Positions 44,973 to 59,645 of a DNA stretch of 64,000 nucleotides are shown here, in pieces. The stretch lies in assembly GCA_029258885.1 (NCBI GenBank), contig JAPDJW010000002.1, positions 320,001-384,000 of the forward strand. Reading direction: 5' to 3'. Under the pieces are notes generated by a model. It worked only from the letters and a program-made list of their open reading frames with translations. It did not search any database and had not been told where the DNA came from. Numbering within the stretch: position 1 is the first letter of the stretch; every line of letters begins with the position of its first letter. Source of the stretch: Thermoproteota archaeon. GTDB taxonomy: Archaea > Thermoproteota > Thermoprotei > Thermofilales > B9-G17. The translations under genes and the position numbers were made by a program.

Positions 44973-45797
44973 CTACTTTCCAGAAATTTTATCAAGAATA
45001 GCTGGCCTAACTATATCTCCGGTGGCCTTTAAAACCCAAATCCCTTCCTCTCTAGCCCTTTCTATCAGATCATGCATAGCAAGCGATACATAGATAACGG
45101 GAATAATAGTCTTCCTCACCTTTTCCGGATAATTAAGCTTAAGCTTTTCGATCTTCCTTATAAGCTCATCGACAAGAGACCTACCAGCTCTAACACTCAC
45201 CTCACCTATAATGCAAACGTCATCGGATACTCCATAAATGTTTATCTCAATTCCGGGAAGTACAAGCCTATACAAATTAACGTCTAGACCAAGCTCCCTA
45301 AGCCTATACTTGACAACCGACAACCCCTCATCCTCAATATCCAACGTAAGCTTCTCAAGCGTACGCTCAACCCTAGACAACCTATTACTGAGACTCTCAA
45401 TCATCCTATTGAAGTCTTCTCTCAGTCTTATCTGCTCTTTCCTCATTTCATTGAATTCCTCTCTTAGCCTTATTTGCTCCTTTCTCATCTCGTTGAAGTC
45501 TTCTCTCAGCTTTATCTGCTCCTTTCTTAGCTCTTCAAAGCTTTTCCTCATTTCATTGAAGTCTTCCCTTAGCTTTATCTGCTCTTTCCTCATCTCCTCA
45601 AAGCTCCTCCATAGCTTTATCTGCTCTTTCCTCATTTCGTTGAATTCTTCCCTTAGCCTTATCTGCTCCTCCATTAGATCGTCTAGTCTCTCAAGTATCT
45701 CTCTCATACCGATGTATCCGGCTACCGCATACCTAAATTCCTTATCCTCCTCAAGTAACCTTAGTATTTTTTCCTTAAGCTGACGCATACCTCCCAA
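44973..45797 (-). CDS. Heptad-repeat coiled-coil protein with a C-terminal PD-(D/E)xK-like domain (DUF3782/paREP-like)
   Basis: LLEEDKEFRYAVAG N-terminus, repeated EQI(R/K)LREEFNEMRK units, EINIYG...IGEVSVR C-terminus. Confidence 0.8.
   Translation of the reverse strand: MGGMRQLKEKILRLLEEDKEFRYAVAGYIGMREILERLDDLMEEQIRLREEFNEMRKEQIKLWRSFEEMRKEQIKLREDFNEMRKSFEELRKEQIKLREDFNEMRKEQIRLREEFNEMRKEQIRLREDFNRMIESLSNRLSRVERTLEKLTLDIEDEGLSVVKYRLRELGLDVNLYRLVLPGIEINIYGVSDDVCIIGEVSVRAGRSLVDELIRKIEKLKLNYPEKVRKTIIPVIYVSLAMHDLIERAREEGIWVLKATGDIVRPAILDKISGK
45390..45680. repeat. Imperfect 42-bp tandem repeats (14-aa unit) inside the coiled-coil gene
   Basis: Recurring CTTATCTGCTC...CTCATTTC(A/G)TTGAA units, about 6 copies. 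Boundaries approximate. Confidence 0.8.
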
Positions 45798-45993: not shown

Positions 45994-46779
45994 ATGAAAA
46001 GAATACTTGTAACAAATGACGACGGTATAGGTAGCATAGGATTAAGAATACTATTCAACTCCGTTAGAAGCCTTGGAACAGTATATGTTGTTGCACCAGA
46101 AGGACCTAAAAGCGCCGTGGGATTAAGCCTAACCTTACACAAGCCTTTAAGGGTTCTCCATAGGATAAAGTATGCAGAGAGAGCTTGGGTTGTAAGCGGT
46201 ACTCCATCGGACTGCATACATATAGGAATAGAGAAGATAATAGGCAGAAAACCTGACCTAGTATTATCAGGGATAAACCTAGGGGATAATACAAGCATAC
46301 AGGTTATCCTAGCCTCCGGAACAGTTGGAGCGGCCATGCAGTCGGCAATAATAGGTATACCCTCAATAGCATTCTCAACAGCCATAGATGATCCGGATAG
46401 GCTTGAAAGAAGCAGGGAATACGTTAGAATAATGAGTAGGTTTGTAAGGAGAATAGTTGAATGGGTACTGGAAAACGGCATGCCTGAGGATGTAAAGCTA
46501 CTAAACGTAAACTTCCCGCCAAAGCTAAGCGAGGATACTAAAGCAATGCTGACTAGACCAGCATTAATGAGGTTTAAGGAGAGAATAATCGAGAGAAGAG
46601 ATCCTAGAGGAAGACCATACTACTGGATATATGGAACAGTACTAGATAATCCGCAGCCTGGAACGGATGTATATGCGGTATGGGTAGAAAATAAGATATC
46701 CATTACACCAATATCAATAAATCTACAGGCGGCAAATACAGAATTCTTTAAACCTTTAGAAAAAAGATTAAACGAATAA
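45994..46779 (+). CDS. surE: 5'/3'-nucleotidase SurE
   Basis: ILVTNDDG, VVSGTPSDC, SGINLGDN, SGTVGAAM and LNVNFP motifs. Confidence 0.96.
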   Translation: MKRILVTNDDGIGSIGLRILFNSVRSLGTVYVVAPEGPKSAVGLSLTLHKPLRVLHRIKYAERAWVVSGTPSDCIHIGIEKIIGRKPDLVLSGINLGDNTSIQVILASGTVGAAMQSAIIGIPSIAFSTAIDDPDRLERSREYVRIMSRFVRRIVEWVLENGMPEDVKLLNVNFPPKLSEDTKAMLTRPALMRFKERIIERRDPRGRPYYWIYGTVLDNPQPGTDVYAVWVENKISITPISINLQAANTEFFKPLEKRLNE

Positions 46780-47331
46780 TGACAGTAAAATTTATAATAT
46801 AAAAATCAGATATTTATTCTAAAATAAAGGCAGAAAACAATCGTGTATCTAATATCATCAAAAGTAAGGTATAAATATTGTATTGTTAGAACCGAATAGA
46901 AAATGAAATACTAATTGAATAAAAATAGAGAACTTTTTTCTAATTAAAATTATAAAATTATCCGATATATAATTAACGTATTCATGTCAAATATTTGTTT
47001 CAATAAAATATTGATTAGAATTAACATTAGAAAATTATAGATATTTGCAGTGGAAATGTTTTTGAAATATTCGTTATCGGTGAAAGTCGAAGTTAAAAGG
47101 CCTTAAAACAACGCTTTAGGAGATAGTGTTTTAAAGCTAATTTTGCAGTTTTGCGTCCACAAAACTGCTACAAAAAATATATGAAGTTATATCAAATATT
47201 TTTTCATAGAATGGTCGAAATTAATGTTGTATATTTTATTGAATTTAATATCCTTATAGATTTTTTGGTAACGTTACGTAACGTTATATAACGTTATGCA
47301 TATTAACTTGTAACGGCATACTGTTATTATT

Positions 47332-47430
47332 ATGGCTAGCATTGCAGAGCTGATAAGGAAGGGTGAGGGAGAAACCATAGAGTTTAAGAGAAGCCTAGCC
47401 GAGCTTAGAGAGATAGTTGAGACTAAGTAA
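47332..47430 (+). pseudogene. 5' fragment of a Schlafen/AlbA_2-domain gene cut by the integrated element
   Basis: MASIAELIRKGEGETIEFKRSLAELREIVET continues in frame at 56454 as IVETICAFSNTRGG once the element is removed. Confidence 0.9.
47413..47425 (+). repeat. attL: 13-bp direct repeat ATAGTTGAGACTA
   Basis: Identical copy at 56454-56466. Recombining the two restores the host reading frame. Confidence 0.9.
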
Positions 47431-47484
47431 ACGGATGTGTTGAGATAGCTTTTTATAGAACCGGATGCGAAAACTTAGCTCGTG

Positions 47485-48864
47485 ATGGGGGCTACGAAAT
47501 CTCAGGTTTTAGAGGACTTCCTGAAGCTCTATTCGGATAAGACTAGTACTCCAAAGACGTACAGGTACCTCCTAGAGATATTTTTCAAGATGGCGGGAAC
47601 TACGCCTGACGATTTTGCTGAGATGGTGAAGCAAGATCCCGAGAAAGCAAAGAACTTATGCTACGATGTCCTTCACAGGATGCAGGTGGAGAAGGTGAGG
47701 GATAAGCAGAAACTGAGGGGAGGGGGATATTCCCCGAAAACTATAACGAACGCTATGGTGGCATTAAACCAGTTTCTCAGCTTCCTCAACGCTGGGTTCA
47801 GGGTCAAGGTGAGGGGGATTAAGCCTATTCCTGTAAATCTAGACTACATCCCCTCCATCGAAGAGATCGAGATATTAATCTCTAAGGCTAGGTTCGAGGT
47901 TAAGCCTATAATAGCATTGATAGCTTTCTCTGGAATGAGAATAGGAGACATCTTAAAGCTGAGGTATAAGAATATAGCTGGCGACATAGAATACATTCCC
48001 GAGGAGAAAAAGTATAGGGCTAAGAGGCTGCCTGCTAAGATCATAGTATTTCAGGAAAAGACTGGGAGACCGTACGTTACCTTCATGGGCTCGAAGTGTT
48101 GTGGAATTCTCACTACTTACCTCAACGACCTCGTTGTAAGGAGGGGGAGACCTCTCGAGGACGAGGATAAGCTGTTCAAGCTAACCTACCAAGCTTTCAT
48201 TATGGCCTTTATGAGGCTCGTCAAGAGGTGTAGCATTCAAGTTCCTTCGATCAAGAGGCTCCGTCCATACTCTCTTAGGAAATACTTTAGGCTACACGTC
48301 TCTAAGCTAGGCGAGGAGACGGCTGAGTATTTGATGGGGCATGTCCGGGGGATAAATTCACTTACCGCTACCTACACGGGGCTACGTGACTTAGATCGCC
48401 GCGCGGTAGAGGAGCTCAGGAAGAGGTTTGCTGAAATACTCCCTGAACTTGAAGGAACTGCGTTCATGTTCAAGGAGGAAGTAGAGAAGCTACATCGGCA
48501 ACAGCAGGAAGAGCTGGAGAGGCTACGAAGGGAGGTCGAGTACTTGAGGGAGGCTCATAACAAGCTCCTCAAAATTCTCACGTGGGATGTCTTAGAGCCC
48601 CACGACCTGAAGAAGATATTCAGCTTCGCCTACGAGATAGCTGGCAAGAGGCTCCGTGAAACGTACTTGAAAGAGGACGAGGAACGGGTGAAAAGGGATT
48701 TTGAGGATGCGGCTAGGGTCGTAGCTAGGAGTATTGAAACTATGAAGGAGAGGAAATACGTTATTGCAAGAGGGGAAGCAGATCTCCTCAACTACCTCGA
48801 AATAGGCTACGAGCTAGTGAAGGAGCTGTCTGGAAACAGGTTTCTGCTCAGGAGACCAAAGTAG
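47485..48864 (+). CDS. Tyrosine integrase (intact, with C-terminal coiled-coil)
   Basis: FSGMRIGDIL (R), QEKT (K), YSLRKYFR, YLMGH and ATY catalytic set. Located 59 nt from attL. Confidence 0.92.
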   Translation: MGATKSQVLEDFLKLYSDKTSTPKTYRYLLEIFFKMAGTTPDDFAEMVKQDPEKAKNLCYDVLHRMQVEKVRDKQKLRGGGYSPKTITNAMVALNQFLSFLNAGFRVKVRGIKPIPVNLDYIPSIEEIEILISKARFEVKPIIALIAFSGMRIGDILKLRYKNIAGDIEYIPEEKKYRAKRLPAKIIVFQEKTGRPYVTFMGSKCCGILTTYLNDLVVRRGRPLEDEDKLFKLTYQAFIMAFMRLVKRCSIQVPSIKRLRPYSLRKYFRLHVSKLGEETAEYLMGHVRGINSLTATYTGLRDLDRRAVEELRKRFAEILPELEGTAFMFKEEVEKLHRQQQEELERLRREVEYLREAHNKLLKILTWDVLEPHDLKKIFSFAYEIAGKRLRETYLKEDEERVKRDFEDAARVVARSIETMKERKYVIARGEADLLNYLEIGYELVKELSGNRFLLRRPK

Positions 48865-48942
48865 CTGGCTAGCAGAACCGAGACAAACATAAGCGTCAGG
48901 CATTCCAGAAAATGGAATTTTGGAGGATTTGAGCTAAGTAAA

Positions 48943-49393
48943 ATGCGAATTCACGAGGCATTAAAGGAAACAGCTCATGGAGAGGAAGGGGATGTATGCT
49001 TTCAGGATCCCCGTCTCCGGATCGAGGGATCTCCCCGACGTCTTTGCAGTAGACAGCTACGGGAAAGCCGTCTACGCCTTCGAAATAAAATCTACCACGA
49101 GGCGGGTGGTGAAGGTGAAGAGGAAGCAGATCACTAGACTGCTCCGCTTCTGCAAAGCTTTCGAGAGGATAGCTAAGACTGCCGCCCTCCTCGCAGTGTA
49201 CAGCTACAGGCTGAGGCGCTGGTTCGTCTGGGAGGTAGACAAGTCGGCTCCATACTACTCTGAGGCGGTGATAGTGCTAGATTTCCAGAACTCGGGGGCA
49301 GTAGTGAGGAAAGGCGATTTTTTAAATCGGGGGATCTATAGCGAAATGTTCACGAAGCTCCTGAATCCCAAGCGTGGGAGTTTTCAGCGGTAA
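48943..49393 (+). CDS. Hjc-like Holliday junction resolvase with a +1 frameshift near its start
   Basis: FRIPVSGS..LPDVFAV...FEIKST core in ORF 48977-49393. The N-terminal MRIHEAL is in another frame and joins RKQLMERKG if A48964 is skipped. Confidence 0.75.
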
Positions 49394-49458
49394 TACAGAC
49401 AGAATTCTAAAACTTGGTTTTCGGCTGAAAATTCCCCTTCCTTCAAATCCTCTAAAAC

Positions 49459-49740
49459 TCAGCGGCGGTAGTAGTATTCCTCGCTCTCGGGTTGCCTCCC
49501 GAAGATAGCTGAGAGAACTACCCAGAGGAAGAGGAAGATGAACAGGTACGGGAGCCCGGTGTAGACGAAGGAGTCGACGATGCTCTTTATGCTGTTGGCG
49601 CTCGCCTCCCAGCGGGTTCCGCTGACGTTGAAGAGCGGGAGGATCTGCGTGTCGATGACGTTGTAGTACACCATGTCGATGAGGTAGTAGAGCACTGAAA
49701 ACATCAGCACGACGAACATTAGGACGGCGATGATCCTCAC
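49459..49740 (-). CDS. Two-helix hydrophobic protein, putative minor capsid/structural protein
   Basis: Two long hydrophobic segments joined by NVSGTRWEASAN, GGTGA RBS 5 nt before GTG, similar to the 88-aa protein. Confidence 0.6.
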   Translation of the reverse strand: MRIIAVLMFVVLMFSVLYYLIDMVYYNVIDTQILPLFNVSGTRWEASANSIKSIVDSFVYTGLPYLFIFLFLWVVLSAIFGRQPESEEYYYRR

Positions 49741-49749
49741 CTAAATCAC

Positions 49750-52623
49750 CTATTTGCCCCTCTTCTTCCTCTTCTTCCTCCTCGAAGCTTTCTTCAGCCT
49801 CCTCGCTTCGCTCCTTATGATCTTCTCGGGAGTCAGCCACTTGCTGAGCCACTTGTCCCACTTCTTCAGCAGTGAGAAGCTGAAAACTGCTCCCCCTCTC
49901 CTGAGCTTGAAGGGCGGAGGGGGTAGCTTGAACGATGGAGGAGGCTCGAAGTCTCCTAAGTCTCCAACAGAGATTAGCTCCTCTACTTGAGCTTCTACTT
50001 CTCCCACCACCTCGTCTATTTCAGCAAACACGTTAGTTTCGAGTTCAGTTTTCTGAAGCGAGGTGAGGCTAACTTTAGGAGTTGGGAAAAAGGCGTATTC
50101 CTCTGCGCTCACGCCTCTAACAGCAGGTACGGGTCTCCTAACTTTCTTCTTCCTCTTCTTCAGCTCTAGCTCTAGCTTAGGTATGGAGGAAATAACATCC
50201 CTAAAACTAATTTCGGGTATTTCAGCGCTTATCTCAACCTGAATAGGCGGTATTTGTAGAGATAGAGCCTCCTTTGCCTCCCCCACTTCTACGCCTGATA
50301 TGGAGGGCAGAGCTACGACTGGAATTAAAGTTAGTTCTTTGGCCGCCTTAACCGATATAGGCTTTGCGCTAACTGGGAGGGGGAAGGTTACTTCCTTACC
50401 TAGCTCTGCGTACTTTGAGACAGGAAGTCCTCCAGTTAGCATTTGGGCGTATTCGTCTAGCTGTGCTAACGCCCACTTAGGTTTGAATGCAGTTTTGAAC
50501 GTAGTCTTCACTCCCTCCTCAGCTCCCAAGCCAGCAATCATAGTTTTAAATTCGAAGCTGTATCCTGGCAGAACTCCTTTCTCGAACTTAATCACATATC
50601 TAACGTCCTTTACCGCATCGTCTACATACTCTAAGAATCTGAGGGCGTCGACAGGCGTACCTCCTACCTTCCCCACTCCGGTGTAAATACCCTTTCCTCC
50701 CTCCCTCACGTACCTGTAGAAGCTCTTCCAAAAGTCTTCGCCCATCCAGACCTCTCCCACAGCGAGACACTTGCCGCTAAAGTACTTGTCGTAGGCTAGT
50801 TGAAGCTCAAGTGGAGAATATATCTTTTGAGCGGAAGCAAATTCTTCCGTTGGGAGACGAGACACCCTCCACAGCTTAACTTCTCCCTTGACGATGTCGT
50901 CTATTTCTCCACCTAACTTGATCACTCCCTCGTTGTCTTTTAAGAACTGCTTGTACACGTCTTCGGCTATGTCGTCCCAGTAGGTATATATTCTCCCCTC
51001 TGCTTCGACTAATATGTCTCCCCCTCCTGAGAGCACCCTACCCTTCATCCTAACCTCAGACGGGAACTCTCCGTAATATTTTGTCTCCCTGAGCAGTTTA
51101 TCTGTAATCTCGCCAACTTTCTCCTTAACGAAGGAAAAAACGCTCCTCCTACCGACAAAATAGCTTCCAATCCCCGGGAGCTCTCCCGTTTCAACGTAGT
51201 ACTGGTAGGTACTTGGGAAGACTTTTTTAGCGATTTTTCCTCCAACTTCTTTAGCCTTCCTCACTCCCTTCTCTACCATCGGGATTATTGGGTTCAGGAG
51301 CTCAGCTAGGAGTTCGCCTTGCACGTATTCTCCTAACGCTATTCCGGGAGCCATCCCCGGGTGTTCGACGAATATCGTGCCTAAGTCTAGCGGAACGTTA
51401 TAGCCGAATATAGTTCCCCACGACTCAAAGCTCCTGATAAATCCAGCAGGTATGTTAATGTAGGTGGACACAGGCTTCGGCTCATATCCCGCAAGAACCC
51501 TCGGGAGGTTCCACCAAGTTGCTAACGGAAGAGCAAACGTTAGACCCCATTTTGCTTCACTTCCAAAGGTCTCTCCAATCCAGGCGTCTATGCTTGCTCC
51601 AATGCTTGCTAGTAAACCGCTTATCGTCCTGTCCTGCGTGCTCTCCCGATATTTCTCTTCTAGCCATCGGTTGTATTCGTTTATTTCATTGTTTAAATTG
51701 TTTATGAAATTGTTGAACTCCTCTACCTCCTTATTGAAGGAAGAAGCTATCGCCTCATACTCGCTAACGTGTCTCTGTAGACTGCCAGCGACGTCTTCGT
51801 ACTCGCCCCTTATCTCCCTCATCCTGTTTATTATCCTCCTGTATTCTCTGACGTACTTCTCGTATTTCCTGCCGTATTTTGCGTTTAACTGCCGTAGCCT
51901 CGCTTCATATTCCTCCCTAGTTATCTCTCCGTTCTCGTACATGTCTTTAAGCCTCTCGTATTCATCCACTATAGACATTATCTTCTTCCTGAGAGACATC
52001 GCCTTATTGTATAGCCTCTCGTACTCCTTTCCTAAGCCTTCGAGCCTCTCCTTTTCACGCTTTATATTCTCCTCAAGAGGCTTGAGCTTAAACTCTGTCT
52101 CAGCTTTCTTGCTGACCAGCTCCCCGTACCATTCCATAGCCTTCCTCTTCTTTTCTTCTATCTCCTCAGGCGTAACTGGAGGCTCCTCTACGCCGGAAGG
52201 TATCTCTACTCTACTCCCTCCTCTAATCCTCAGACCCTCTTCCCTATATAAGTCCTCCTCAACCAAATCCTCTATCAAGTCTTCGGGCAGTTCTCCACCA
52301 ATTCCTGCCTCAGTTCCGCCGCCAACTTCACCGGAGCTTGCCTCCTCCTTTCCTCCAAATTGAGGCATCGTAGATGGAACAGGGGGAACGATATCGGACG
52401 GCACCTCGAAGCCCAACATATAGCTAGGAATGAAATCAACCGTAGAAACGTCTCCACTTTCCTTACGTCCTCCCCCGCCTTCCTCAGTCGCAGACGTAGT
52501 TGGATGCACAGTCACTTCTTCGTCTGGAAGGGGAACTTCCTCCTCCTTCCTCTTTTTCTCTTCTTCCTCTTCGCCTGCTCCCGCTGACTCCGCGCCTAAA
52601 GAGAAATATTCTTCGACGGGAAT
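49750..52623 (-). CDS. Large (921 aa from GTG 52515; 957 aa from ATT 52623) acidic/coiled-coil protein with a polybasic C-terminus, putative virion protein
   Basis: Glu/Gly-rich N-terminus, long coiled-coil, weakly hydrophobic middle, C-terminal RRLKKASRRKKRKKRGK. The frame is open up to an ATT preceded by GGTGA. Confidence 0.7.
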   Translation of the reverse strand: MPVEEYFSLGAESAGAGEEEEEKKRKEEEVPLPDEEVTVHPTTSATEEGGGGRKESGDVSTVDFIPSYMLGFEVPSDIVPPVPSTMPQFGGKEEASSGEVGGGTEAGIGGELPEDLIEDLVEEDLYREEGLRIRGGSRVEIPSGVEEPPVTPEEIEEKKRKAMEWYGELVSKKAETEFKLKPLEENIKREKERLEGLGKEYERLYNKAMSLRKKIMSIVDEYERLKDMYENGEITREEYEARLRQLNAKYGRKYEKYVREYRRIINRMREIRGEYEDVAGSLQRHVSEYEAIASSFNKEVEEFNNFINNLNNEINEYNRWLEEKYRESTQDRTISGLLASIGASIDAWIGETFGSEAKWGLTFALPLATWWNLPRVLAGYEPKPVSTYINIPAGFIRSFESWGTIFGYNVPLDLGTIFVEHPGMAPGIALGEYVQGELLAELLNPIIPMVEKGVRKAKEVGGKIAKKVFPSTYQYYVETGELPGIGSYFVGRRSVFSFVKEKVGEITDKLLRETKYYGEFPSEVRMKGRVLSGGGDILVEAEGRIYTYWDDIAEDVYKQFLKDNEGVIKLGGEIDDIVKGEVKLWRVSRLPTEEFASAQKIYSPLELQLAYDKYFSGKCLAVGEVWMGEDFWKSFYRYVREGGKGIYTGVGKVGGTPVDALRFLEYVDDAVKDVRYVIKFEKGVLPGYSFEFKTMIAGLGAEEGVKTTFKTAFKPKWALAQLDEYAQMLTGGLPVSKYAELGKEVTFPLPVSAKPISVKAAKELTLIPVVALPSISGVEVGEAKEALSLQIPPIQVEISAEIPEISFRDVISSIPKLELELKKRKKKVRRPVPAVRGVSAEEYAFFPTPKVSLTSLQKTELETNVFAEIDEVVGEVEAQVEELISVGDLGDFEPPPSFKLPPPPFKLRRGGAVFSFSLLKKWDKWLSKWLTPEKIIRSEARRLKKASRRKKRKKRGK

Positions 52624-52724
52624 CTACCTCACCCCCACAGGAGCTTCAAAAACACCACCTTAAATTGGAGAGAATTGTTCAAGGGAAAAAATGAAGTTAA
52701 CTCTTCCTGCTGGCTTACTCTTAC

Positions 52725-52991
52725 TTACTCCCTGCCTCCTCCGCCGGCGAGACCCATTAGAAGCCTAAGCATGAATGCCGCAATGATCACCATGAAGGCT
52801 ACGCCTAACAGCGTGAATCCCGTTTGAACGGCGGTTACGAAGTTGTTGTAGGGAGTAGCCCAGTTAGTCCCCGTCAGGTTCATCGAGCTCTCGACTTGTG
52901 CGGCGATGTAGAGGCCGATGACTACTGTACATATTAGTACTACGGCGGCAATCGCTATACCGGCAAGCCCAACCTGACCCTTCCTGTTCAT
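52725..52991 (-). CDS. Two-helix hydrophobic protein, putative major capsid protein (spindle/bacilliform type)
   Basis: 88 aa, MNRKG|Q basic N-terminus, two hydrophobic helices flanking NLTGTNW with a sequon, strong GAGGTG RBS. Confidence 0.65.
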   Translation of the reverse strand: MNRKGQVGLAGIAIAAVVLICTVVIGLYIAAQVESSMNLTGTNWATPYNNFVTAVQTGFTLLGVAFMVIIAAFMLRLLMGLAGGGGRE

Positions 52992-53325
52992 ACGCTCACA
53001 CCTCTATCTAATGAAAGAGGAAGAAGTATATCAGGGAAATTACATTCACGGCCTATTAGGAGCTAGCTTTGCGGATGCATAACGTTGATTATAATTATAT
53101 TATATTGCTGGGAGGGGTTTGTTATACAACGATCCAACGCCGCCCGCTTCCCCGTCGCCACAGCGGAAGAGGCGCAGAGCACAGAGGGGGAAGGTTTAGC
53201 GGAGAGGTCAGTCATCATCGTAGACTCAGGGAGGGGGTCGAAGTCATCGGTATGATACATCAAATCCCCTACGTTGCGGCGAAAGTGAAATTATCCCTTC
53301 CTCATCGGAGGAAATCCGCCGAGTT

Positions 53326-53697
53326 CTAGAACTCCATCAGCCTCTTAAACTCGTTAGCTGGCAGAATTATAAAATCTTTACCAGCATATTCTGGCGGTAG
53401 ATACTTAAGTACTTCTGCATACTTGTACTTACCTTTCTTTGTAACGAGCTTCGCCCTCACCCTCCAGACTTTCATCGAGCCATCCTTCACTTTCAGCCCA
53501 ATAGGCTTCTTTATCCACTCCTTAACTTCCACTAAAATCTGGTCAGTCCCCTTAACCTCCTTCACGGTGGCATTTACCGCTTTGAACTTATCCTCAAGCA
53601 CTTCATAGACCTCTCTATCCATTATCAGAACTACGGGATCATGTGTGTAACTTATGTAACGTGTGTAACGTTGAAGTAAATGTTTTCTATTTCTCAT
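53326..53697 (-). CDS. Hypothetical protein of the element
   Basis: 123-aa Lys-rich ORF with GGAGG RBS. C-terminal YLPPEYAGKDFII is reminiscent of swapped-hairpin (AbrB-like) proteins. Confidence 0.6.
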   Translation of the reverse strand: MRNRKHLLQRYTRYISYTHDPVVLIMDREVYEVLEDKFKAVNATVKEVKGTDQILVEVKEWIKKPIGLKVKDGSMKVWRVRAKLVTKKGKYKYAEVLKYLPPEYAGKDFIILPANEFKRLMEF

Positions 53698-53742
53698 CTT
53701 ATTTCCTCCTTCAAGCCATATCTACGTCCAAATCAGCCCAAT

Positions 53743-54316
53743 AAATTTGCATTAATTTGTATTGCAAATTTTCTATTTGCATTAATTTGTATTGCAAATT
53801 TTCTTATCTCTTTTTACGTATTTCAGCTCCGATTCTAGCTGGTATGGAAATTTGCAAATTTGCATAGAGGTAGTAGTTAAAGTCCTTCCACGCCGCTGGC
53901 GGTGCGGTAGCGGCCTCACAGTTAAATGAATAATATACTCTCCTCCCTGCTTCTCAATTTTGAAGCGGCTACCTCTGTATTTCTCTAAGAACTCTTTTAT
54001 ATCGGGCTTACTAAATCCAAATTCACTCTCCAGAAACTGGACGAACTCCTTTCCGCTAATTCTCCCTCCCCGCTCTCTAATAAACGCTTCAACCTCTTCA
54101 GCCACAACCTCATAAACAAGATCGTTAAAGGACACCTTTTCTCCCGTTATGGGGTCTACGTATTCTCCTCCAGCCATCTCCCTAACTTTACTTATATCTC
54201 TATGCAAATTTGCAAATTTCCTAATCAGCCCTTTAATGTACTGAATAACGCCTGATACGTCATCTAAATTTGCATTACAACCAAATGCGAATTTTTCTTT
54301 CTCTTTTTGCAAATTG
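53743..54316. repeat. Cluster of AAATTTGCA/TGCAAATTT dyads including a 30-bp tandem duplication (53745-53804)
   Basis: Motifs at 53743, 53763, 53775, 53793, 53848-53864, 54203-54219, 54266 and 54286. Confidence 0.8.
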
Positions 54317-55581
54317 CTCGGAAACTCAGAGACTAGTTTATATGCGGGTCTGTATATGTTTCCCCTCCTACCTCCTCTACCCTCTTTAATCAGGTACCCT
54401 TTATCCACTAAGTCTTCCAGCTTACCGTAGATCGTTCTCCTGCTGTATCCCAGCTTCTCTCCTACAACGTCGAAGACCTGGTTGACGGTAACTCCTTCTC
54501 CGTTTTCGGAACATAAATCTAGGACGACTTGAAGTATGTATCTTTCCTGTTTGGTTAGCTCGAAAATTGAGTGCTCCAGTGCATTATAGCCCAGCCTTAA
54601 AGCAATAGCCAAATCCACCAAATCCGCTCTATCCCTTAAACTCTCTGGCTTCTGGAAGTATCTGCAAATAGCTATTTGCTTTATTAATCCTCCAAGTTTC
54701 AGCGGATACCTCCTGCTCTCAGATCTTTCAGAGGGGATCAAATCCTTCAACTCAGTTGCATAGGGAATTATTGGGTCAACGTCAACCGTAGCTATAATCC
54801 TGAAAGCCTCCTGCCAAACCTTCAGCTCCTTTGCGTCGTGTGGGAGTACATCTTTCTTTCCCTCTAAATGTTTGAGCCACACCTCGATGACCTCCTCTGT
54901 GAATTTGGGGTCGCTAGACAGTTCAATTCTCCACATCCCGCTTTTGAGAGCTGAGCTAATTCTACGTACGTTCGTTGTGGTTATTATCCCTTTAACTGGC
55001 ATTTTCACGACGGCTGTCTCCATCTGCTTTGTTTTCGGGTTCATGTAGGCGTACTCTGAGATGATTCCTCCATCGCTAGTCCTCATCAGTCTGAACTGTC
55101 TCTCCATCTCTCCTACAACTAAATCTATATCAGGGATATACAGTATATCTGCCTCCTTGAGTTCCTCTGAATATCTCATCGCGGCTGGCGTAAAGTAGCC
55201 TCTCTCTATACACTTCACAGCTTTCTTCAAGAGGAACAGAGACATCCTAACCATGCTGTCCTTTCCAGTTCCAGGCTCACCCACAACCTGGATTAAGGTG
55301 ACATAGCCCCTCTTGACAGCCATCAAGAGTATTGGAAGTAATCTCTTGTTGGCCTCCTCTCCTAATATGAAGCGTGGTTTATTCAGCTCTGGAAGTACAA
55401 AGCCATAGCTAAATATTTTTCCCAACTTATAGAAGAAGTCTGGAGACTTAAGCAACTCCTTCGCCTCAGATTCGAGTTCCTTCGCCTCAGATTCGAGTTC
55501 ATACTCAGTCATAAATTCTTCTAGGTCTCCCTCTAACTCCTTACTCTCCTCGCCGTCCTCTACAACCTTACCTCTCTTCAA
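53782..55581 (-). CDS. P-loop NTPase / putative replicative helicase with C-terminal winged-helix domains
   Basis: GEEANKRLL pre-motif, Walker A GEPGTGKD, Walker B-like LYIPD, sensor TTTN, wHTH YSRRTIYGKLEDLVDKGYL. Confidence 0.75.
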   Translation of the reverse strand: MKRGKVVEDGEESKELEGDLEEFMTEYELESEAKELESEAKELLKSPDFFYKLGKIFSYGFVLPELNKPRFILGEEANKRLLPILLMAVKRGYVTLIQVVGEPGTGKDSMVRMSLFLLKKAVKCIERGYFTPAAMRYSEELKEADILYIPDIDLVVGEMERQFRLMRTSDGGIISEYAYMNPKTKQMETAVVKMPVKGIITTTNVRRISSALKSGMWRIELSSDPKFTEEVIEVWLKHLEGKKDVLPHDAKELKVWQEAFRIIATVDVDPIIPYATELKDLIPSERSESRRYPLKLGGLIKQIAICRYFQKPESLRDRADLVDLAIALRLGYNALEHSIFELTKQERYILQVVLDLCSENGEGVTVNQVFDVVGEKLGYSRRTIYGKLEDLVDKGYLIKEGRGGRRGNIYRPAYKLVSEFPSNLQKEKEKFAFGCNANLDDVSGVIQYIKGLIRKFANLHRDISKVREMAGGEYVDPITGEKVSFNDLVYEVVAEEVEAFIRERGGRISGKEFVQFLESEFGFSKPDIKEFLEKYRGSRFKIEKQGGEYIIHLTVRPLPHRQRRGRTLTTTSMQICKFPYQLESELKYVKRDKKICNTN

Positions 55582-55888
55582 TCAAATTCACCTCCACAGA
55601 GAACTTCTGACGGAGAAATCGGACGACCTCCACTCCCCTCTCAGTTAAATAATTATAGGTGGCAGGAACCCTTAAGCTCGGATGCATTCTCCGAACCCTA
55701 AACACAAGCCCAGCTTTCTCTAACTGCTTTAGGTAATAGCTTACTTCCCGTCCGCCGAGGAGATTACTTATCTCGCAGGTGTAGAGCGGCTTGTTGGTGA
55801 AGTATAGACAGAGCAGTATCTCTAAGTTCCGCTTACAAAAAACTTTATTAACACGCTCAGCGAACTTCTTTATAAAGTAAGTATTCAT
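55568..55888 (-). CDS. Winged-HTH DNA-binding protein
   Basis: NLEILLCL...EISNLL...YYLKQLEKAGLV...YLTERG. GGAGGTGA RBS. Confidence 0.8.
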   Translation of the reverse strand: MNTYFIKKFAERVNKVFCKRNLEILLCLYFTNKPLYTCEISNLLGGREVSYYLKQLEKAGLVFRVRRMHPSLRVPATYNYLTERGVEVVRFLRQKFSVEVNLIEER

Positions 55889-55967
55889 ACTATCACCTCC
55901 TGAAGTTCTTCTTTCAATTGGTTAGAATTTGTTCAAATACGGGAAAATTGAAACTTAAACTGCCTTC

Positions 55968-56237
55968 TTATTCCCCTTCCTCACCTTCGCCTTGATTTCC
56001 AGCCACCCTTTTCGCAAGTTCCTCGAACTTCAAGATGGAAATTTTGATGTTCCTCTCCTTCGGCTCACATCTAATGATGGCGAGGTCTCCCTTTTCAAGG
56101 TTTAGAGCTTTCGCTACCTCCATAGGAATTGTAACAGCGTAGCAGGTTCGCAAATACAATATCCGCCTGACGTGTAGCACTTTACCACCTTTAACACAGC
56201 CTTTCAATTGGAATAAATCTCGACTTAACTTCCTCAT
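55968..56237 (-). CDS. AbrB/MazE-like swapped-hairpin DNA-binding protein
   Basis: YAVTIPMEVAKALNLEKGD motif. Confidence 0.8.
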   Translation of the reverse strand: MRKLSRDLFQLKGCVKGGKVLHVRRILYLRTCYAVTIPMEVAKALNLEKGDLAIIRCEPKERNIKISILKFEELAKRVAGNQGEGEEGE

Positions 56238-56250
56238 AACTTAGTTATTA

Positions 56251-56274
56251 GTTTACTAAACGGGATATATAAAA
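56251..56274 (-). promoter_or_regulatory. Putative promoter of the element's regulatory/replication operon with a palindromic operator
   Basis: TTTTATATA about 26 nt upstream of the AbrB-like ATG, with GTTTA(G/C)TAAAC (56251-56261) between them. Confidence 0.45.
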
Positions 56275-56453
56275 TTAGCGGTGGATGGCAAAAGTGAAAT
56301 TGTATTTAAATTTTCTGGTTCGTGAATTTCCCCTCCGTTTCTCTGGATATTGGATGTTTCCCTCGTTGAAAGCGGCTTGGATCAGCTTTATTTCTGCCGC
56401 GTCCTGTTCTTGTTTCTGGTTAATTCTAAAACTAGCTTTACGTTTTTGAACGC

Positions 56454-56466
56454 ATAGTTGAGACTA
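56454..56466 (+). repeat. attR: 13-bp direct repeat ATAGTTGAGACTA
   Basis: Identical to 47413-47425. Confidence 0.9.
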
Positions 56467-57686
56467 TATGTGCATTTTCTAATACACGTGGAGGGATAGT
56501 TCTTGTTGGAGTTAACGATAAGGGTGAAGTCGTAGGAGTCGATGTTAGCAGGAGTACTATAGAGAATCTGGTTTCCAGGATAGCTAGGGAGACAAACCCT
56601 AGGATATATCCTGAGGTGGAGGTTGTAGAGTTTAACGGCAGAAAAGTTATTGTTATAAGGGTTTCCGAATGAACGGATAAGCCAGTATTTGCCTTCGGCG
56701 TAGCCTACAAGAGGGTTGGGAAAAGCAATCTTAAAATGGATAGGGATGAGATACTTAGGCTTTTCAGAGAGTCCCGAAGGATAAGCTTTGAAGACGAGAA
56801 AATATGTACTATAAGTGAGCTCGACTACGGGAAAATTAAAAGCTTTATTGAGAGAGCTTCCGCGTATAGAAGAGCTGTGCTACCCAGCGACCCGAAATCG
56901 GTTCTAGATAACCTCGGCATGTTGCTAAATGATCACATTAATATCGCTGGTCTCCTAGCTTTCGGCAGAAATCCTCAGAAGTATTTTCCGTATGCGTGCA
57001 TAAAGATAGGGAAGTTTGTATCGGGGAGTATTATTTTTGAAAAGGAAATTAAGGGAGATATTATCGAACAGATCGAAAGGGCATATGCTGAGGTATTGAG
57101 TCTTATAAAACGAGAAATTAAGGTTAAAGGATTAAAAAGAGAGGAGGTCTACGAGTATCCGCCTAAGGCTTTGAGGGAAGCCGTAGTTAACGCTGTAGCG
57201 CACAGGGATTACTCGATTAAATCACCTATCTATATAAGGATATACGAGGACAGGATAGAGTTTGAAAATCCCGGAGGATTAATTGATTTAACAGTTGAAG
57301 ACTTAAAGAAGCCTCATAAATCAATACTAAGGAACCCTAAGATAGCGGAAGTACTATATTACTTGGGCTTCATAGAGAAGTGGGGCATAGGTACACTAAT
57401 GATTATTAAAGAGTGTATTTTAAACGGAAACGGCGAGCCAGTATTCGAGTCCAATGGTAGCTTTAAACTTACAATCTTCTCAAGGTACTTTAGCTCATTA
57501 GATCCTGTGGAGCGGAAAATAATTGATTACATTGGGGAGAAGGGCGTAGTTGAAAGAAGGGAAATTCAGGAGCATCTTAAGCTAGCTGAAAGCACGGTTA
57601 GGAAATACCTAATTAAGCTTAGGCTAAGAGGCTTAATAGTTAAAATTGGAAGGGGAAAGAGGACGGTTTATAAGCTTGCGCTTTAA
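56454..57686 (+). pseudogene. 3' part of a Schlafen/AlbA_2 + HATPase-like (RecG_C-type) + wHTH gene, with an in-frame TGA at 56670
   Basis: ICAFSNTRGGIVLVGVNDKG, AYKRVGKS, then ORF 56736-57686 with REAVVNAVAHRDY, ENPGG, RNPKIA, IEKWGIG and a terminal wHTH. Confidence 0.88.
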
Positions 57687-57770
57687 AATTTTAAATTGCT
57701 TGCTGTATTTTGTCCTTTTTCGTTTAACGTTTAGCAGATATTTATTAACTAGTTTTATAATAGTTTTCTC

Positions 57771-59645
57771 ATGAATTTAGATCCATACGAGTGGATGGAG
57801 AATCTAGATAACCCTAAGCTTCTCGAATGGATTGAAGTTGAGGATAGAAAATTTAGAGAATACGTCCATAGTTTATCTCAACGATTAAGGGAGAGAATTA
57901 GAAGGTATTATTTTGTAAAAAACTTAATCAGTGTAAGGATATCGGAGAAAGGGTATTATGCTCTTTTCCAGGATAGGGATGTATTTAAACTTAAGCTGCT
58001 CGATAGAGAGGGCGAGTGGATAGACGTAATCGATTCGAGGGAGCTGGGAGAACATGTTATACTTAAGGACTTCTACCCTGACCCTACTGGTCAGTACCTA
58101 GCGTACAACTATTCGTTTAAGGGAGCCGATGTAGGCTTTACACATTTTATAGACGTGGAGACTGGCGAGCTTTTAGATAAGCTTGAGGGAATTGTAGGGT
58201 CGATAATATGGCTGGATAAGGAGGCATACTACTACGTGAGATTCTTCAGTAAAAGTAAGTCTCCGGACGGTGTCGATCCACCTACAACTAGAATGTTCCT
58301 GAGGCGTCAGCAGGAGGAGGAAATGGTTTTCGGAGAAGGCTTGCCGCAAGCTCATTTTATACTAGCTAAGCCGTCAACAGATTATAAGAATATTCTCATA
58401 GCCGTTAGCCTCGGATGGAGTAAAAGTGACACGTTCGTGGGACCTCTTAAGGATCCATCTAGATGGAGGAAAATCTTTGGCGGCGATTTCATAACGTTCC
58501 CCATAGATGCAGTGGATAATTCATACCTAATAGCCGCTTTCGACCGTGGGGGATACGGCAGGATAATATTGGCATCAGTCAAAGGGGAAGTAAAAGAGCT
58601 GGTTAGAGAATGGAGATATCCGCTAAAGGAGGCAGCACTAGTTGGGGATAAGTTGCTGATACATTACTTGGTGGATGCATCATCTATTCTAAGGGTATTT
58701 GACCTTAAAGGTAAAATACTGGATGAAATAAAGTTTGACGGAGCGGGAACAGTATCCATTACGGACTTTAACTCGAGTGAAGCTGTCCTAAAATACACGT
58801 CGTTCTTAACCCCATACAGGTTCTATAAGTTTAGCGGAAGGGGACTTGAAGTAATCGAATCAAAGGACTTTAAACTCGAAATTACGGTCGAGGAGCGCTG
58901 GGCGGAGTCATTCGATGGAACAAGAATACACATGTTTATCGTTAAAAGGAAGAACTGTAAGGCAGATAAGGTGCTCCTCTATGGATACGGTGGGTTCAAT
59001 GTATCTATAACGCCGCACTATTTATCATACCTTATACCCTTCATAGAGGACTGTGGAACATACGTTATAGCTAACATAAGAGGTGGAGGCGAATACGGGG
59101 AGAAGTGGCATAGAGATGGAATGAGGGAGAAGAAGGAAAACGTTTTCATGGACTTCATAGCTGCAGCAAAGTACCTGAAAAATATGGGAGCTAAAGTCGT
59201 GGCAATGGGTTCAAGCAACGGCGGTCTACTAGTAGGCGCGGTCCTAACTAAAGAGCCTGAGCTACTCGATGGAGCTGTGATAGGATACCCAGTATTGGAT
59301 ATGCTGAAGTTCCATAAACTATACATAGGCAAGAGCTGGGTACCGGAGTACGGAGATCCTGATAATCCGAAGGATGCAGAGTTCCTAATCAAGTATTCGC
59401 CGTATCACAACGTTAAGTCAGCCAAATACCCGCCGACACTCGTCTACACAGGGTTACACGATGATAGGGTGCATCCAGCCCACGCCTTCAAGTTCGTAGC
59501 CAAGTTAAAGGAGGTAAACGCACCAGTCTACCTAAGAGTTGAAAAAGCAAGCGGGCACTCGGGAGCAACGCCCAAAATAAAGCTAAATGAACTATCAGAC
59601 ATATTAGCCTTCATATACAAGGTGCTTGGTCTATCCATGGCATAA
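57771..59645 (+). CDS. Prolyl oligopeptidase (S9A)
   Basis: DPYEWME, YGYGGFN, RGGGEYG, GSSNGG, HDDRVHP and GH catalytic triad. Confidence 0.96.
   Translation: MNLDPYEWMENLDNPKLLEWIEVEDRKFREYVHSLSQRLRERIRRYYFVKNLISVRISEKGYYALFQDRDVFKLKLLDREGEWIDVIDSRELGEHVILKDFYPDPTGQYLAYNYSFKGADVGFTHFIDVETGELLDKLEGIVGSIIWLDKEAYYYVRFFSKSKSPDGVDPPTTRMFLRRQQEEEMVFGEGLPQAHFILAKPSTDYKNILIAVSLGWSKSDTFVGPLKDPSRWRKIFGGDFITFPIDAVDNSYLIAAFDRGGYGRIILASVKGEVKELVREWRYPLKEAALVGDKLLIHYLVDASSILRVFDLKGKILDEIKFDGAGTVSITDFNSSEAVLKYTSFLTPYRFYKFSGRGLEVIESKDFKLEITVEERWAESFDGTRIHMFIVKRKNCKADKVLLYGYGGFNVSITPHYLSYLIPFIEDCGTYVIANIRGGGEYGEKWHRDGMREKKENVFMDFIAAAKYLKNMGAKVVAMGSSNGGLLVGAVLTKEPELLDGAVIGYPVLDMLKFHKLYIGKSWVPEYGDPDNPKDAEFLIKYSPYHNVKSAKYPPTLVYTGLHDDRVHPAHAFKFVAKLKEVNAPVYLRVEKASGHSGATPKIKLNELSDILAFIYKVLGLSMA

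Follow-up and report, generated by a model that had tools for sequence, protein, structure and literature searches.

The locus, from an uncultured hydrothermal-vent archaeon, holds a 9.04-kb block of DNA bounded by two copies of a 13-bp repeat and lodged in a protein-coding gene. Coordinates refer to the window, by which we mean the whole 64-kb stretch of DNA that was analysed, and the features are as follows.

47332..47425, plus strand: 5' fragment of the target gene (SLFN/AlbA_2 family), 31 codons running on into element DNA and ending ...IVETK*
47413..47425: attL core, ATAGTTGAGACTA, equal to the target-gene codons IVET
47482..48864, plus strand: tyrosine integrase, 460 aa (phrog_1, E 3.6e-20; phrog_216, E 2e-12; PF00589, E 6e-5)
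48977..49393, plus strand: Hjc-type Holliday-junction resolvase homologue, 138 aa (PF01870, E 2.6e-12; phrog_6591, E 1.8e-14)
49459..49740, minus strand: MCP2, 93 aa, two hydrophobic helices (by hydropathy) and an NVSGTRW loop
49750..52515, minus strand: LARGE, 921 aa from a GTG start (SHOCT, PF09851, E 1.2e-7)
52725..52991, minus strand: MCP1, 88 aa, two hydrophobic helices, an N-terminal RKGQ motif and an NLTGTNW loop
53326..53697, minus strand: 123-aa ORF, 3' remnant of a longer helicase-like gene (match to an L121 protein)
53745..54314: ATTTGCA/TGCAAAT dyad cluster, including a 30-bp tandem duplication
53782..55581, minus strand: Rep, predicted MCM-like AAA+ helicase, 599 aa, with C-terminal winged-helix domains
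55568..55888, minus strand: wHTH (ArsR-like) regulator, 106 aa (HTH_5, E 1.7e-4; phrog_12817, E 5e-5)
55968..56237, minus strand: AbrB/SpoVT (MazE-fold) DNA-binding protein, 89 aa (PF04014, E 2.2e-5, at the curated cut-off)
56300..56453: right arm adjoining attR, common to a different insert at the same site (X3)
56454..56466: attR core, ATAGTTGAGACTA, where the X2 empty-site contig enters
56454..57686, plus strand: 3' part of the target gene (AlbA_2, HATPase_c_4 and wHTH, from Pfam and translation)

The core sequence has exactly two perfect copies in the window, spaced 9,041 bp from start to start. When up to one mismatch was allowed, the window contained four matches against 0.16 expected, and four or more were reached in 0 of 100 shuffles; the two one-mismatch copies, at 42882 and 42993, lie inside an unrelated AbrB-like gene. 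The flanks have a GC content of 0.31 to 0.42, below that of the element (0.41 to 0.52), which is 0.47 to 0.52 from 47.5 to 53.5 kb and about 0.41 to 0.45 from 53.5 to 56.5 kb. The two flanks are halves of one gene: the stretch at 47332-47425 (MASIAELIRKGEGETIEFKRSLAELREIVET) resumes in frame at 56467 (ICAFSNTRGG...), as read by eye on the frame-1 translation, and the insertion point falls at codons 28 to 32. In the right half, SLFN_AlbA_2 is recognised at E 7e-18 over profile positions 20-91, and HATPase_c_4 and wHTH domains come after it. This half is interrupted in frame by a TGA codon at 56670-56672, whereas position 56670 is A in the X2 and X3 metagenome contigs, which read AGA (Arg) and have no stop there. 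No tRNA gene was found in the window.

In metagenome run X2, a 2,255-nt contig joins window positions 47396-47412 directly to 56454-58000 at a depth of 35.5, equal to that of the host. This contig is the empty site (attB), joined at the 13-bp core. Throughout X2-X4 the assembly graph forks exactly after 47425, where the left-flank contig stops in X4, and the element-side contigs start just before this fork, with a depth of 6 to 7 against a host depth of about 9 to 40. An X3 contig at host depth (17.4) matches the window from 56300 on and is preceded by 181 unrelated bases. Empty and occupied sites coexist in other metagenomes, from vents and sediments, and between metagenomes of different studies the element shows at least 99% identity; the source sample holds a subpopulation with a 9.7-kb deletion that loses the element and part of the target gene. 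Because the empty site is joined exactly at the core and occurs alongside the occupied one, the element is discrete and has recently moved.

A preliminary description of this DNA had proposed a 9,041-bp integrated element between perfect direct repeats, with an unsplit integrase, a target other than a tRNA gene, a particular set of ORFs and no polymerase, primase or packaging ATPase. This account held throughout: the element is complete, with exact att repeats and flanks joined at the core in the X2 contig; every one of the ORFs is present, from the integrase and Hjc to the wHTH and AbrB-like genes; and none of the three enzymes is encoded. The 460-aa integrase ORF is intact, with attP 56 bp upstream of int. 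PF00589 (Phage_integrase) covers residues 139-299 but falls short of the curated cut-off, and by eye the tyrosine-recombinase catalytic residues, R..K..(H/Y)xxR..H..Y, appear to be present in GMRIGD, YSLRKY, MGH and TATY; about 140 additional, coiled-coil-rich residues make up the C-terminus. No match to the integrase was found among deposited phage or plasmid records (tblastn) or in the SSV1 integrase (phmmer).

Rep starts about 45 residues ahead of its ATPase core, with helices only in that stretch. Its AlphaFold2 model (pLDDT 80) was compared with the PDB in Foldseek, and the best 50 matches were all MCM chains (best E 1e-9, TM only 0.30-0.36); at the sequence level there was no PDB match. 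Taken with Pfam wHTH matches at residues 343-414, the model predicts an AAA+ core of the MCM fold followed by winged-helix domains, as in the MCM clade and in the MCM-like helicases of archaeal and bacterial mobile elements. An N-terminal OB-fold and zinc-binding domain was not found, nor was there a Pfam MCM_N or MCM_OB match. Many of the 37 Rep homologues carry an N-terminal Prim-Pol domain (PF09250); in contrast to these Prim-Pol-MCM fusions, Rep has no primase domain. The ATTTGCA/TGCAAAT dyad, 12 of whose 14 occurrences in the window fall within the 570-bp cluster, marks a candidate origin or operator. The neighbouring 123-aa ORF shares 89% identity, over its residues 9-123, with the C-terminal end of a P-loop protein (606 aa) of sister element L121, the DNA identity of 98.5% ending at 53639, and on this comparison the ORF is a helicase-like gene remnant and a recombination scar.

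MCP1 and MCP2 have the architecture of spindle-virus major capsid proteins (about 80 aa, two hydrophobic helices, a short loop, one or two paralogues). They are paralogous (profile-profile hhalign E 1.2e-5, probability 81%), and their Smith-Waterman score was reached by 0 of 2,000 composition-preserving shuffles. MCP1 has 18 relatives among 1.84 billion representative proteins and 15 metagenome loci. Comparisons of MCP1 or MCP2 with SSV VP1/VP3 or His1 VP21 in hhalign gave weak likeness (E 0.002-0.03, probabilities 2-14%), of which the MCP1 profile against that of SSV VP1/VP3, aligned in register, scored E 0.002 and 14%; the accepted homologues SSV and His1 VP21 gave E 0.006, no better than that pair. 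Neither MCP1 nor MCP2 matched a known capsid family at a statistically secure level. The Pfam VP1_VP3, His1_capsid and VP2 models gave nothing significant in the genome, PF06281 (VP1/VP3) had no match at E <= 10 genome-wide or among 20 family members, and MCP2 reached only E 0.15 with His1_capsid, a model that gave 0.9 across the genome.

LARGE, for which the gene caller chose an alternative 889-aa start (ATG at 52419), begins with a disordered, acidic stretch, continues with a coiled-coil hairpin (antiparallel) that bears a SHOCT motif and with a conserved centre, and ends in a polybasic C-terminal tail; the AlphaFold2 model is confident only at residues 116-293, which correspond to the hairpin. 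Its homologues include a 1205-aa protein of metagenome contig L123 (24.6% identity across 309 aa, E 1e-8) and a 1075-aa protein of L126 (phmmer E 7e-9), and the tail, which is conserved (alignment A7), possibly binds DNA. There was no match to LARGE in a 5.8-billion-protein search or in the PDB, and its profile did not match SSV1 VP4 (E 0.44). Neither a signal peptide nor a transmembrane (TM) anchor was predicted, unlike in known end-filament or adhesin proteins, an observation that we count against the explanation favoured below. The three genes form an intact, tightly packed operon that we infer, from conserved synteny and context, to be a virion module, in which the paralogues MCP1 and MCP2 would serve as capsid proteins, each with two hydrophobic helices and a sequon-Trp loop.

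The nearest relatives of the element come from metagenomes of uncultured vent and sediment communities. They are the contigs L129 (10.4 kb), L123 (7.6 kb), L126 (4.7 kb), L008 and L010, which have homologues of MCP1 (40-67% identity), LARGE and MCP2 in the same order. The operon that had earlier been described as structural-looking is in this way a conserved module with 88- and 93-aa paralogues, and we define here an uncultured MCP1-LARGE-MCP2 group with homologous genes in that order, to which the element belongs. MCP2 homologues (E 6e-8 to 3e-7) come after LARGE in L123 and L129, and in L132 they are close to MCP1. The five contigs differ from the element in carrying an AAA+ ATPase immediately upstream of MCP1, in most cases an SSV1-VP2 homologue after it, and further small membrane proteins; the element's integrase, Hjc, MCM-like Rep and regulators occur in none of them. 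More widely, an AAA+ ATPase lies beside MCP1 in L008, L012, L023, L026, L123, L129 and L131, homologues of the SSV1 B251 ATPase adjoin MCP1 in L131 (E 3e-24) and L026 (E 1.6e-15), and homologues of PF25632/SSV1 VP2 lie beside MCP1 in relatives (E 5e-14 to 1e-22). The module order recurs on metagenome contigs with such VP2 and B251 homologues, and a genome contig bearing an MCP1 relative, L023, encodes an SSV1-type integrase (E 9e-39). The fuselloviral company of these relatives supports the identification of a spindle-virus capsid module. A set of sister elements, L007 (inserted at the same attL), L120 and L121, keeps MCP1 together with a 99% identical integrase at the same site, and a serine recombinase replaces Hjc, MCP2 and LARGE; in one sister the integrase and MCP1 are all that is kept. 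The retention of MCP1 suggests a core role for it in how the element lives.

Like Fuselloviridae (SSV1 and others), the element has a pair of capsid-like paralogues, each about 80-90 aa long with N-x-S/T sequons and two hydrophobic helices, features reported for spindle-virus major capsid proteins in general (bioRxiv 10.1101/2021.07.29.453957; PMC10848311; PMC9608457). It also has a large protein in the structural region and a tyrosine integrase, and would share a carrier or lysogenic lifestyle and a small circular dsDNA form. It differs from Fuselloviridae in lacking a significant PF06281 match, in its MCM-like Rep, in its size (9 kb, where the SSV records examined measure 11.4-18 kb) and in its integrase, which is unsplit, not of the SSV type and directed to a protein-coding gene, whereas the SSV-type integrase gene is split upon integration into a tRNA gene. 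The nine absolute-core fusellovirus genes, which include VP4, A82, A92, the B251 ATPase, C166, A154 and B115 (PMC9608457), were not detected in the element, except for a possible VP1 analogue. In phmmer searches the nine proteins of the element had no match among the ORFs of SSV1 or His1, and SSV1 ORFs gave a single weak match in the genome, on another contig.

Genomes of His1, Wyrdviruses and Huangdiviruses measure 14-27 kb. The N-x-[ST]-x-x-W loop of MCP1 and MCP2 resembles NASTSSW of His1 VP21 in the hhalign alignments, the likeness to His1-type capsid proteins being weak (E 0.005-0.02). His1 (Halspiviridae), Huangdiviridae and Wyrdviruses, the last being published spindle-type viruses of Asgard archaea, have His1-like capsid proteins in one or two copies and exchange replication modules freely (bioRxiv 10.1101/2021.07.29.453957). 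Huangdivirus (Bathyarchaeia, 'Huangdiviridae'), a provirus from a deep-sea vent, encodes VP1-VP3 as well as an ATPase and an integrase (PMC10848311). These viruses encode a morphogenesis ATPase and a TM-anchored adhesin, whereas neither part of this module (B251-like AAA+ ATPase, receptor-binding adhesin) was found in the element, and elsewhere in the genome only generic AAA proteins were found in place of a B251-like ATPase. The SSV satellites pSSVx and pSSVi need a helper virus for particles. They resemble the element in being small and in combining a plasmid-type replication protein with a few virus genes, pSSVx having homologues of B251 and A154 (PMC9608457). Satellites of this kind have no capsid gene, and the element, which encodes MCP-like genes and lacks B251 and A154 homologues, differs from them; no helper-like genes were found elsewhere in the assembly.

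Judged by its genes, the element is a mosaic of a capsid-like module of fusellovirus-like vent viruses and a plasmid-type replication helicase. The preliminary description was right about an integrated element with att sites, an unsplit integrase and a non-tRNA target, but its claim that the element fits no recognised family does not stand, since relatives of the module carry SSV1 VP2 and B251 homologues and, on one contig, an SSV-type integrase. This SSV-type context, together with fusellovirus-like proviruses with VP1-VP3 published from deep-sea vents (PMC10848311; Wyrdviruses, bioRxiv 10.1101/2021.07.29.453957), places the element in the spindle-shaped-virus assemblage. We therefore favour, with some reserve, a recently mobile 9.04-kb mosaic, integrated site-specifically and belonging to the fusellovirus-like lineage of spindle-shaped viruses. 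It is probably a spindle-type virus that is either very small or dependent on a helper, rather than a wholly new kind of virus. Rep would probably bind the dyad cluster at its own 3' end and recruit host primase and polymerase for replication, Hjc would resolve junctions, and the wHTH and AbrB proteins would control the carrier state. Neither the AAA+ ATPase nor the VP2 DNA-binding protein that its relatives encode beside MCP1 is present in the element, which would accordingly be a minimal virus able to assemble in their absence or else a satellite or a defective form dependent on a helper. Counted against this explanation are the lack of a secure match of the hairpin proteins to any capsid family, the missing fusellovirus core genes, the absence of helper-like genes from the rest of the assembly, the replacement of Hjc, MCP2 and LARGE in the sister elements, the occurrence of Rep on contigs without hairpin proteins, and the 123-aa scar.

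A bolder version, which we regard as a serious possibility though an unlikely one, is that the element is an autonomous virus, with 9.0 kb and eight functional genes the smallest known of the assemblage and the founder of a new family. Its particles would then consist of a pair of hairpin capsid proteins and a single large protein of a new kind, coiled-coil and polybasic, and would form without an AAA+ ATPase, which is otherwise regarded as universal in the assemblage. The new family would infect an uncultured hydrothermal-vent Thermoproteota lineage, with a Schlafen/AlbA_2-type gene as its integration target.

Rep has its closest homologues (52-57% identity) on 6.7- to 8.2-kb integrase-bearing contigs without two-helix hairpin proteins, and other Rep homologues are plasmid-type Prim-Pol fusions. 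The element might accordingly be read as an integrative plasmid with an MCM-like Rep and an integrase, like the small contigs L002 and L004, that acquired virus-derived membrane-protein genes and spreads without a virion of its own, for example by vesicles, conjugation in trans or vertical descent; the missing ATPase, VP2 and TM-anchored adhesin and the mosaic scar would suit such a plasmid. We think this unlikely, given that the three-gene module is intact and tightly packed, that its order is kept in distant relatives bearing VP2, B251 and SSV-integrase homologues, and that the sister elements retain MCP1 with the integrase. Pleolipoviruses typically have small genomes (7-16 kb) and few membrane proteins, and the hairpins could be envelope proteins of a pleomorphic (pleolipovirus-like) or a rod-shaped virion, the spindle context being coincidental gene sharing. 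The likeness to spindle-virus capsid proteins is indeed not significant and LARGE is unrelated to SSV1 VP4, but MCP1, LARGE, Rep and the integrase have no tblastn match in a phage and archaeal-virus collection, LARGE has neither the signal peptide nor the C-terminal anchor of a pleolipovirus spike, and the context genes of the relatives are specifically fuselloviral, which leaves this virion type improbable.

Least probable of all, in our judgement, is a decaying provirus remnant, fixed and no longer mobile. The truncated 123-aa gene, the missing morphogenesis ATPase and VP2, the nonsense codon in this genome's target gene and the 9.7-kb deletion in the source sample are what such decay might leave behind. 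Against it, the att repeats match perfectly, none of the nine ORFs is interrupted, near-identical copies recur across metagenomes with occupied and empty sites side by side, and the integrase is 99% conserved among the sister elements at the same site.

The element is bounded by perfect direct repeats of 13 bp, as the preliminary description had claimed: the 13-mer ATAGTTGAGACTA occurs in two exact copies in the 64-kb window, at 47413-47425 and 56454-56466, with a spacing of 9,041 bp. When one mismatch was allowed, we found four sites where 0.16 were expected, a number reached by none of the shuffles. We rejected the one-mismatch att-like sites, at 42882 and 42993, as chance codon likeness inside an unrelated AbrB-like gene. 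No tRNA gene was found within the window. GC content is 0.47 to 0.52 between 47.5 and 53.5 kb and ~0.41 to 0.45 from there to 56.5 kb, with flanks at 0.31 to 0.42. The sequence derives from a hydrothermal-vent metagenome, and the host assembly (2.1 Mb) is 99.9% complete. SurE of the host has its closest matches in MAGs labelled Thermodiscus sp. (50%) and Thermofilaceae (40%), which makes the host an uncultured member of Thermoproteota, with any finer placement tentative. All of the previously named ORFs are present, and profile matches uphold the integrase, Hjc, wHTH and AbrB assignments. The features are as follows.

47332..47425 and 56454..57686, plus strand: halves of the target gene (SLFN/AlbA_2-HATPase-wHTH)
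47482..48864, plus strand: int, tyrosine integrase gene (phrog_1, E = 3.6e-20; Pfam E = 6e-5, under the Pfam cut-off)
49459..49740, minus strand: MCP2, 93 aa
49750..52515, minus strand: LARGE, 921 aa
52725..52991, minus strand: MCP1, 88 aa
53326-53697: 123-aa ORF
53782..55581, minus strand: Rep, P-loop protein of 599 aa
Also within the element: Hjc (PF01870, E = 2.6e-12), an ArsR-like wHTH protein (profile match, E = 1.7e-4) and an AbrB/MazE-fold protein (profile match, E = 2.2e-5)

From position 47332, the left flank encodes MASIAELIRKGEGETIEFKRSLAELREIVET, and the frame picks up beyond the right repeat with ICAFSNTRGG.... The right part of this gene matches SLFN_AlbA_2 (E = 7e-18, profile positions 20 to 91), followed by HATPase_c_4 and then a wHTH. 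The continuity of the frame across the repeats, together with the SLFN_AlbA_2 match, therefore places the 13-bp core within a protein-coding gene, of which it forms codons 28 to 32 and which is split by the insert.

We surveyed alleles of this site by comparing Logan contigs from four public runs with positions 46000-58000. In run X2, which belongs to a different study, a 2,255-nt contig with a host depth of 35.5 opens with 47396-47412 and proceeds directly to 56454; this is an empty site, joined precisely at the core. The assembly graphs of runs X2 to X4 fork at the core, with element-side contigs that start at 47396 or 47405 at a depth of 6 to 7 and host flanks at ~9 to 40, and in X4 the left-flank contig terminates at 47425. 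The empty-site contig and these forks show that both occupied and empty alleles are present in nature. The match of the dominant X3 host contig (depth, 17.4) begins only at 56300, after 181 unrelated bases; this is a different insert at the same att site, sharing approximately the last 150 bp of the right arm (56300-56453). Site-specific insertion at the 13-bp core of the AlbA_2-family gene is polymorphic in the population, and occupied, empty and differently occupied alleles of this integration target inside an SLFN/AlbA_2 gene coexist naturally.

On the downstream side of the insertion, the target gene contains an in-frame TGA at 56670-56672. Contigs from X2 and X3 have AGA (Arg) at this position and hence an intact target gene, which means that the disrupted gene of the present genome has also acquired a nonsense change. 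One 85-nt unitig of the probable source run, with a depth of 6.6 where the element has 12.9, links 47286 to 56975 via 20 other bases, which resemble an inverted copy of 47232-47251. It therefore seems that some cells in the source population lack the element plus approximately the first 600 nt of the target gene. Breaks at these places occur in two separate assemblies, represented by a unitig of 9,753 nt and a contig of 9,803 nt. Just upstream of the target-gene start, 47262-47300 holds three tandem-like copies of TAACGTTA/TAACGTTAT, where assemblies break too; these copies could serve as an operator or be a hotspot of recombination. Several observations were uninformative either way: no attP circle junction occurred among the Logan contigs compared, no RNA run was among the listed holders of the element, and the depth of the element in the probable source run (12.9) was not above that of its flanks (16.6 to 17.7).

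Three metagenome contigs (L007, L120 and L121) carry sister elements that occupy the same attL, with 99% identical integrases and 90 to 92% identical MCP1 proteins, and they encode a serine recombinase (Resolvase, E = 4e-38) where the present element has Hjc, MCP2 and LARGE. The 123-aa ORF is 89% identical to the last 115 residues of a 606-aa P-loop DEAD_2-like protein (L121:338-2158), and the DNA identity of 98.5% between the two regions stops at 53639, the position of a recombination joint with the rep module. The match to the C terminus of the 606-aa protein and the end of identity thus make the 123-aa ORF a recombination remnant. A 12-kb metagenome contig, L132, is a further recombinant, in which the capsid module is joined to a different replicon: its divergently oriented MCP1 and MCP2 homologues adjoin a PriL-like protein (PF04104, E = 3e-14), an 841-aa protein and an integrase that is related (E = 6e-40) to that of L002, a capsid-less contig with Rep.

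LARGE lies between the two capsid-like genes. It is homologous to large proteins of the relative-bearing contigs L123 (24.6% identity over 309 aa, E = 1e-8) and L126 (E = 7e-9), and the L126 protein is 49% identical to that of L129. A central block is common to all four proteins, as is a C-terminal PPP...LPRGGA...W..W motif with a polybasic tail after it. The gene order is conserved across these loci.

Gene order around MCP1 and LARGE
L129: ATPase, MCP1, VP2-like, two small genes, LARGE, MCP2
L123: ATPase, MCP1, LARGE, MCP2
L126: MCP1, VP2-like, one small gene, LARGE
Present element: MCP1, LARGE, MCP2

LARGE represents a conserved large-protein family whose genes lie between the two capsid-like genes in the MCP1-LARGE-MCP2 group. 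It has no predicted TM segment, in which it differs from the large proteins of L023 (a 15-kb genome contig with an MCP1 relative), and it is unrelated to SSV1 VP4. Its single-sequence AF2 model (mean pLDDT, 43.5) was inadequate for a fold search, being confident only at residues 116 to 293, an antiparallel coiled-coil hairpin bearing a SHOCT motif. A word-indexed search of 5.8 billion proteins, covering lengths close to and below that of LARGE, returned nothing, LARGE itself included, because the gene caller had chosen another start. ESM Atlas look-alikes gave no usable lead for LARGE or the 123-aa ORF, and a PDB sequence search with the LARGE profile, Rep and the integrase gave coiled-coil noise only.

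The two small proteins did not match each other in BLASTP, and their paralogy was detected only by unfiltered Smith-Waterman and profile comparison. Scans of IMG/VR with MCP1 and two sub-alignments found no relatives, and the Pfam VP1_VP3 and His1_capsid models gave no significant match. In hhalign, the MCP1 profile aligned with the SSV VP1/VP3 alignment at E = 0.002 (probability, 14%) and with His1 VP21 at E = 0.005; the accepted SSV-His1 pair itself reached E = 0.006, and the test is therefore of low power for these proteins. A sequon-Trp loop (NLTGTNW or NVSGTRW) aligns with NASTSSW of His1 VP21.

According to published work, spindle-virus MCPs are ~80 aa long, with two hydrophobic segments, and occur in one or two paralogous copies; their genes lie next to those for the adhesin and the B251-like ATPase, and these viruses exchange replication modules freely (bioRxiv 10.1101/2021.07.29.453957). 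VP1-VP3 homologues have also been described in a provirus from a deep-sea vent (PMC10848311). In L008, L010, L124, L126, L128, L129 and L134, the gene after MCP1 matches PF25632 and also SSV1 VP2 directly (E = 5e-14 to 1e-22). The ATPase preceding MCP1 is a homologue of SSV1 B251 (E = 3e-24 in L131 and 1.6e-15 in L026), and the L023 integrase matches that of SSV1 (E = 9e-39). From this context we conclude that the MCP1-LARGE-MCP2 module belongs to the spindle-virus assemblage; MCP1 and MCP2 are probably homologous to known MCPs, their direct sequence similarity being weak.

Several MCP1-family N termini (alignments A1 and A2) have [KR][GA]Q directly before the first hydrophobic helix (RKGQ in the present element), a motif that is reminiscent of archaeal class III signal-peptide sites and aligns with the (K/R)(G/A)E where the conserved part of the SSV VP1 sequences begins (alignment A3). 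MCP1 may be processed at its N terminus. The idea that MCP1 is a pilin, prompted by RKGQ, was dropped: a second hydrophobic helix stands in place of the globular pilin domain, and the viral genomic context of the relatives also disfavours it.

Thirty-seven homologues of Rep were identified, many of which carry a Prim-Pol domain at the N terminus. Its AF2 model (pLDDT, 80) matched MCM chains in Foldseek (E = 1e-9, TM ~0.35), with winged-helix domains after the matched region. Twelve of the 14 ATTTGCA/TGCAAAT sites in the window fall within 53745-54314, a cluster that overlaps the last third of rep, extends just past its 3' end and is the best candidate for an origin or operator. ATTTGCA-N11-TGCAAAT dyads lie there within a 30-bp tandem duplication, with overlapping double sites at 53850-53864 and 54203-54217; the final ~40 residues of Rep are modelled as disordered.

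We propose that the integrase would catalyse insertion at the 13-bp core; int is left unsplit by integration because attP lies 56 bp upstream of it. The MCM-like Rep would load onto the dyad cluster and employ host primase and polymerase, Hjc would resolve replication or recombination junctions, and the wHTH and AbrB proteins may regulate the carrier state. Judging by synteny and context, MCP1 and MCP2 would build a hydrophobic capsid lattice, and LARGE would be a structural or genome-condensing component; DNA binding by LARGE, hinted at by its polybasic tail, is speculative.

No element protein matched any ORF of SSV1 or His1, and a B251-like ATPase and VP2 are absent both from the element and from the rest of the host genome. 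Searches with tblastn found no match for Rep, LARGE, MCP1 or the integrase among deposited phage and archaeal-virus records, or for Rep or the integrase among plasmid records. Among 60 to 120 genomes of the host's class, Rep, the integrase and whole-element DNA found only the window itself and short low-complexity matches, and no CRISPR-spacer-like match was recognised in these searches. Exact-protein look-up gave no identical record for the AbrB-like protein or the integrase and, for Rep, returned solely the 9,803-nt contig, which carries the entire element and short flanks. The nearest actual relatives of the element are metagenome contigs. The element falls outside Fuselloviridae, from which it differs in its core genes, in the type of its integrase and in its integration target; it works like the fusellovirus-like vent viruses, to which it is related through the module. 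Its novel features are a size of 9 kb, an MCM-like replicon, the lack of an ATPase and the LARGE family, together with an unsplit, divergent integrase that has a protein-gene target.

The element is possibly a minimal virus, and if particles are formed, its gene content gives a lower bound for what a spindle-type virion requires and calls the need for a B251-type ATPase into question. It could also be a helper-dependent satellite. A plasmid carrying viral genes is likewise possible: the closest relatives of Rep (52 to 57% identity) lie on contigs of 6.7 to 8.2 kb that have an integrase and no hairpin proteins and are therefore plasmid-like. If no particles are made, the element is a clear natural plasmid-virus intermediate. 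The capsid-like module of fusellovirus-like viruses circulates among deep-sea vent Thermoproteota and can be combined with a plasmid-type MCM replicon and a non-SSV integrase in just 9 kb.

Elsewhere in the window, 45359-45725 holds a repeat array with a period of 42 bp (seven overlapping copies, 61 to 76% identity). It sits in a 274-aa ORF (44973-45797, minus strand) that has a weak SMC coiled-coil match.
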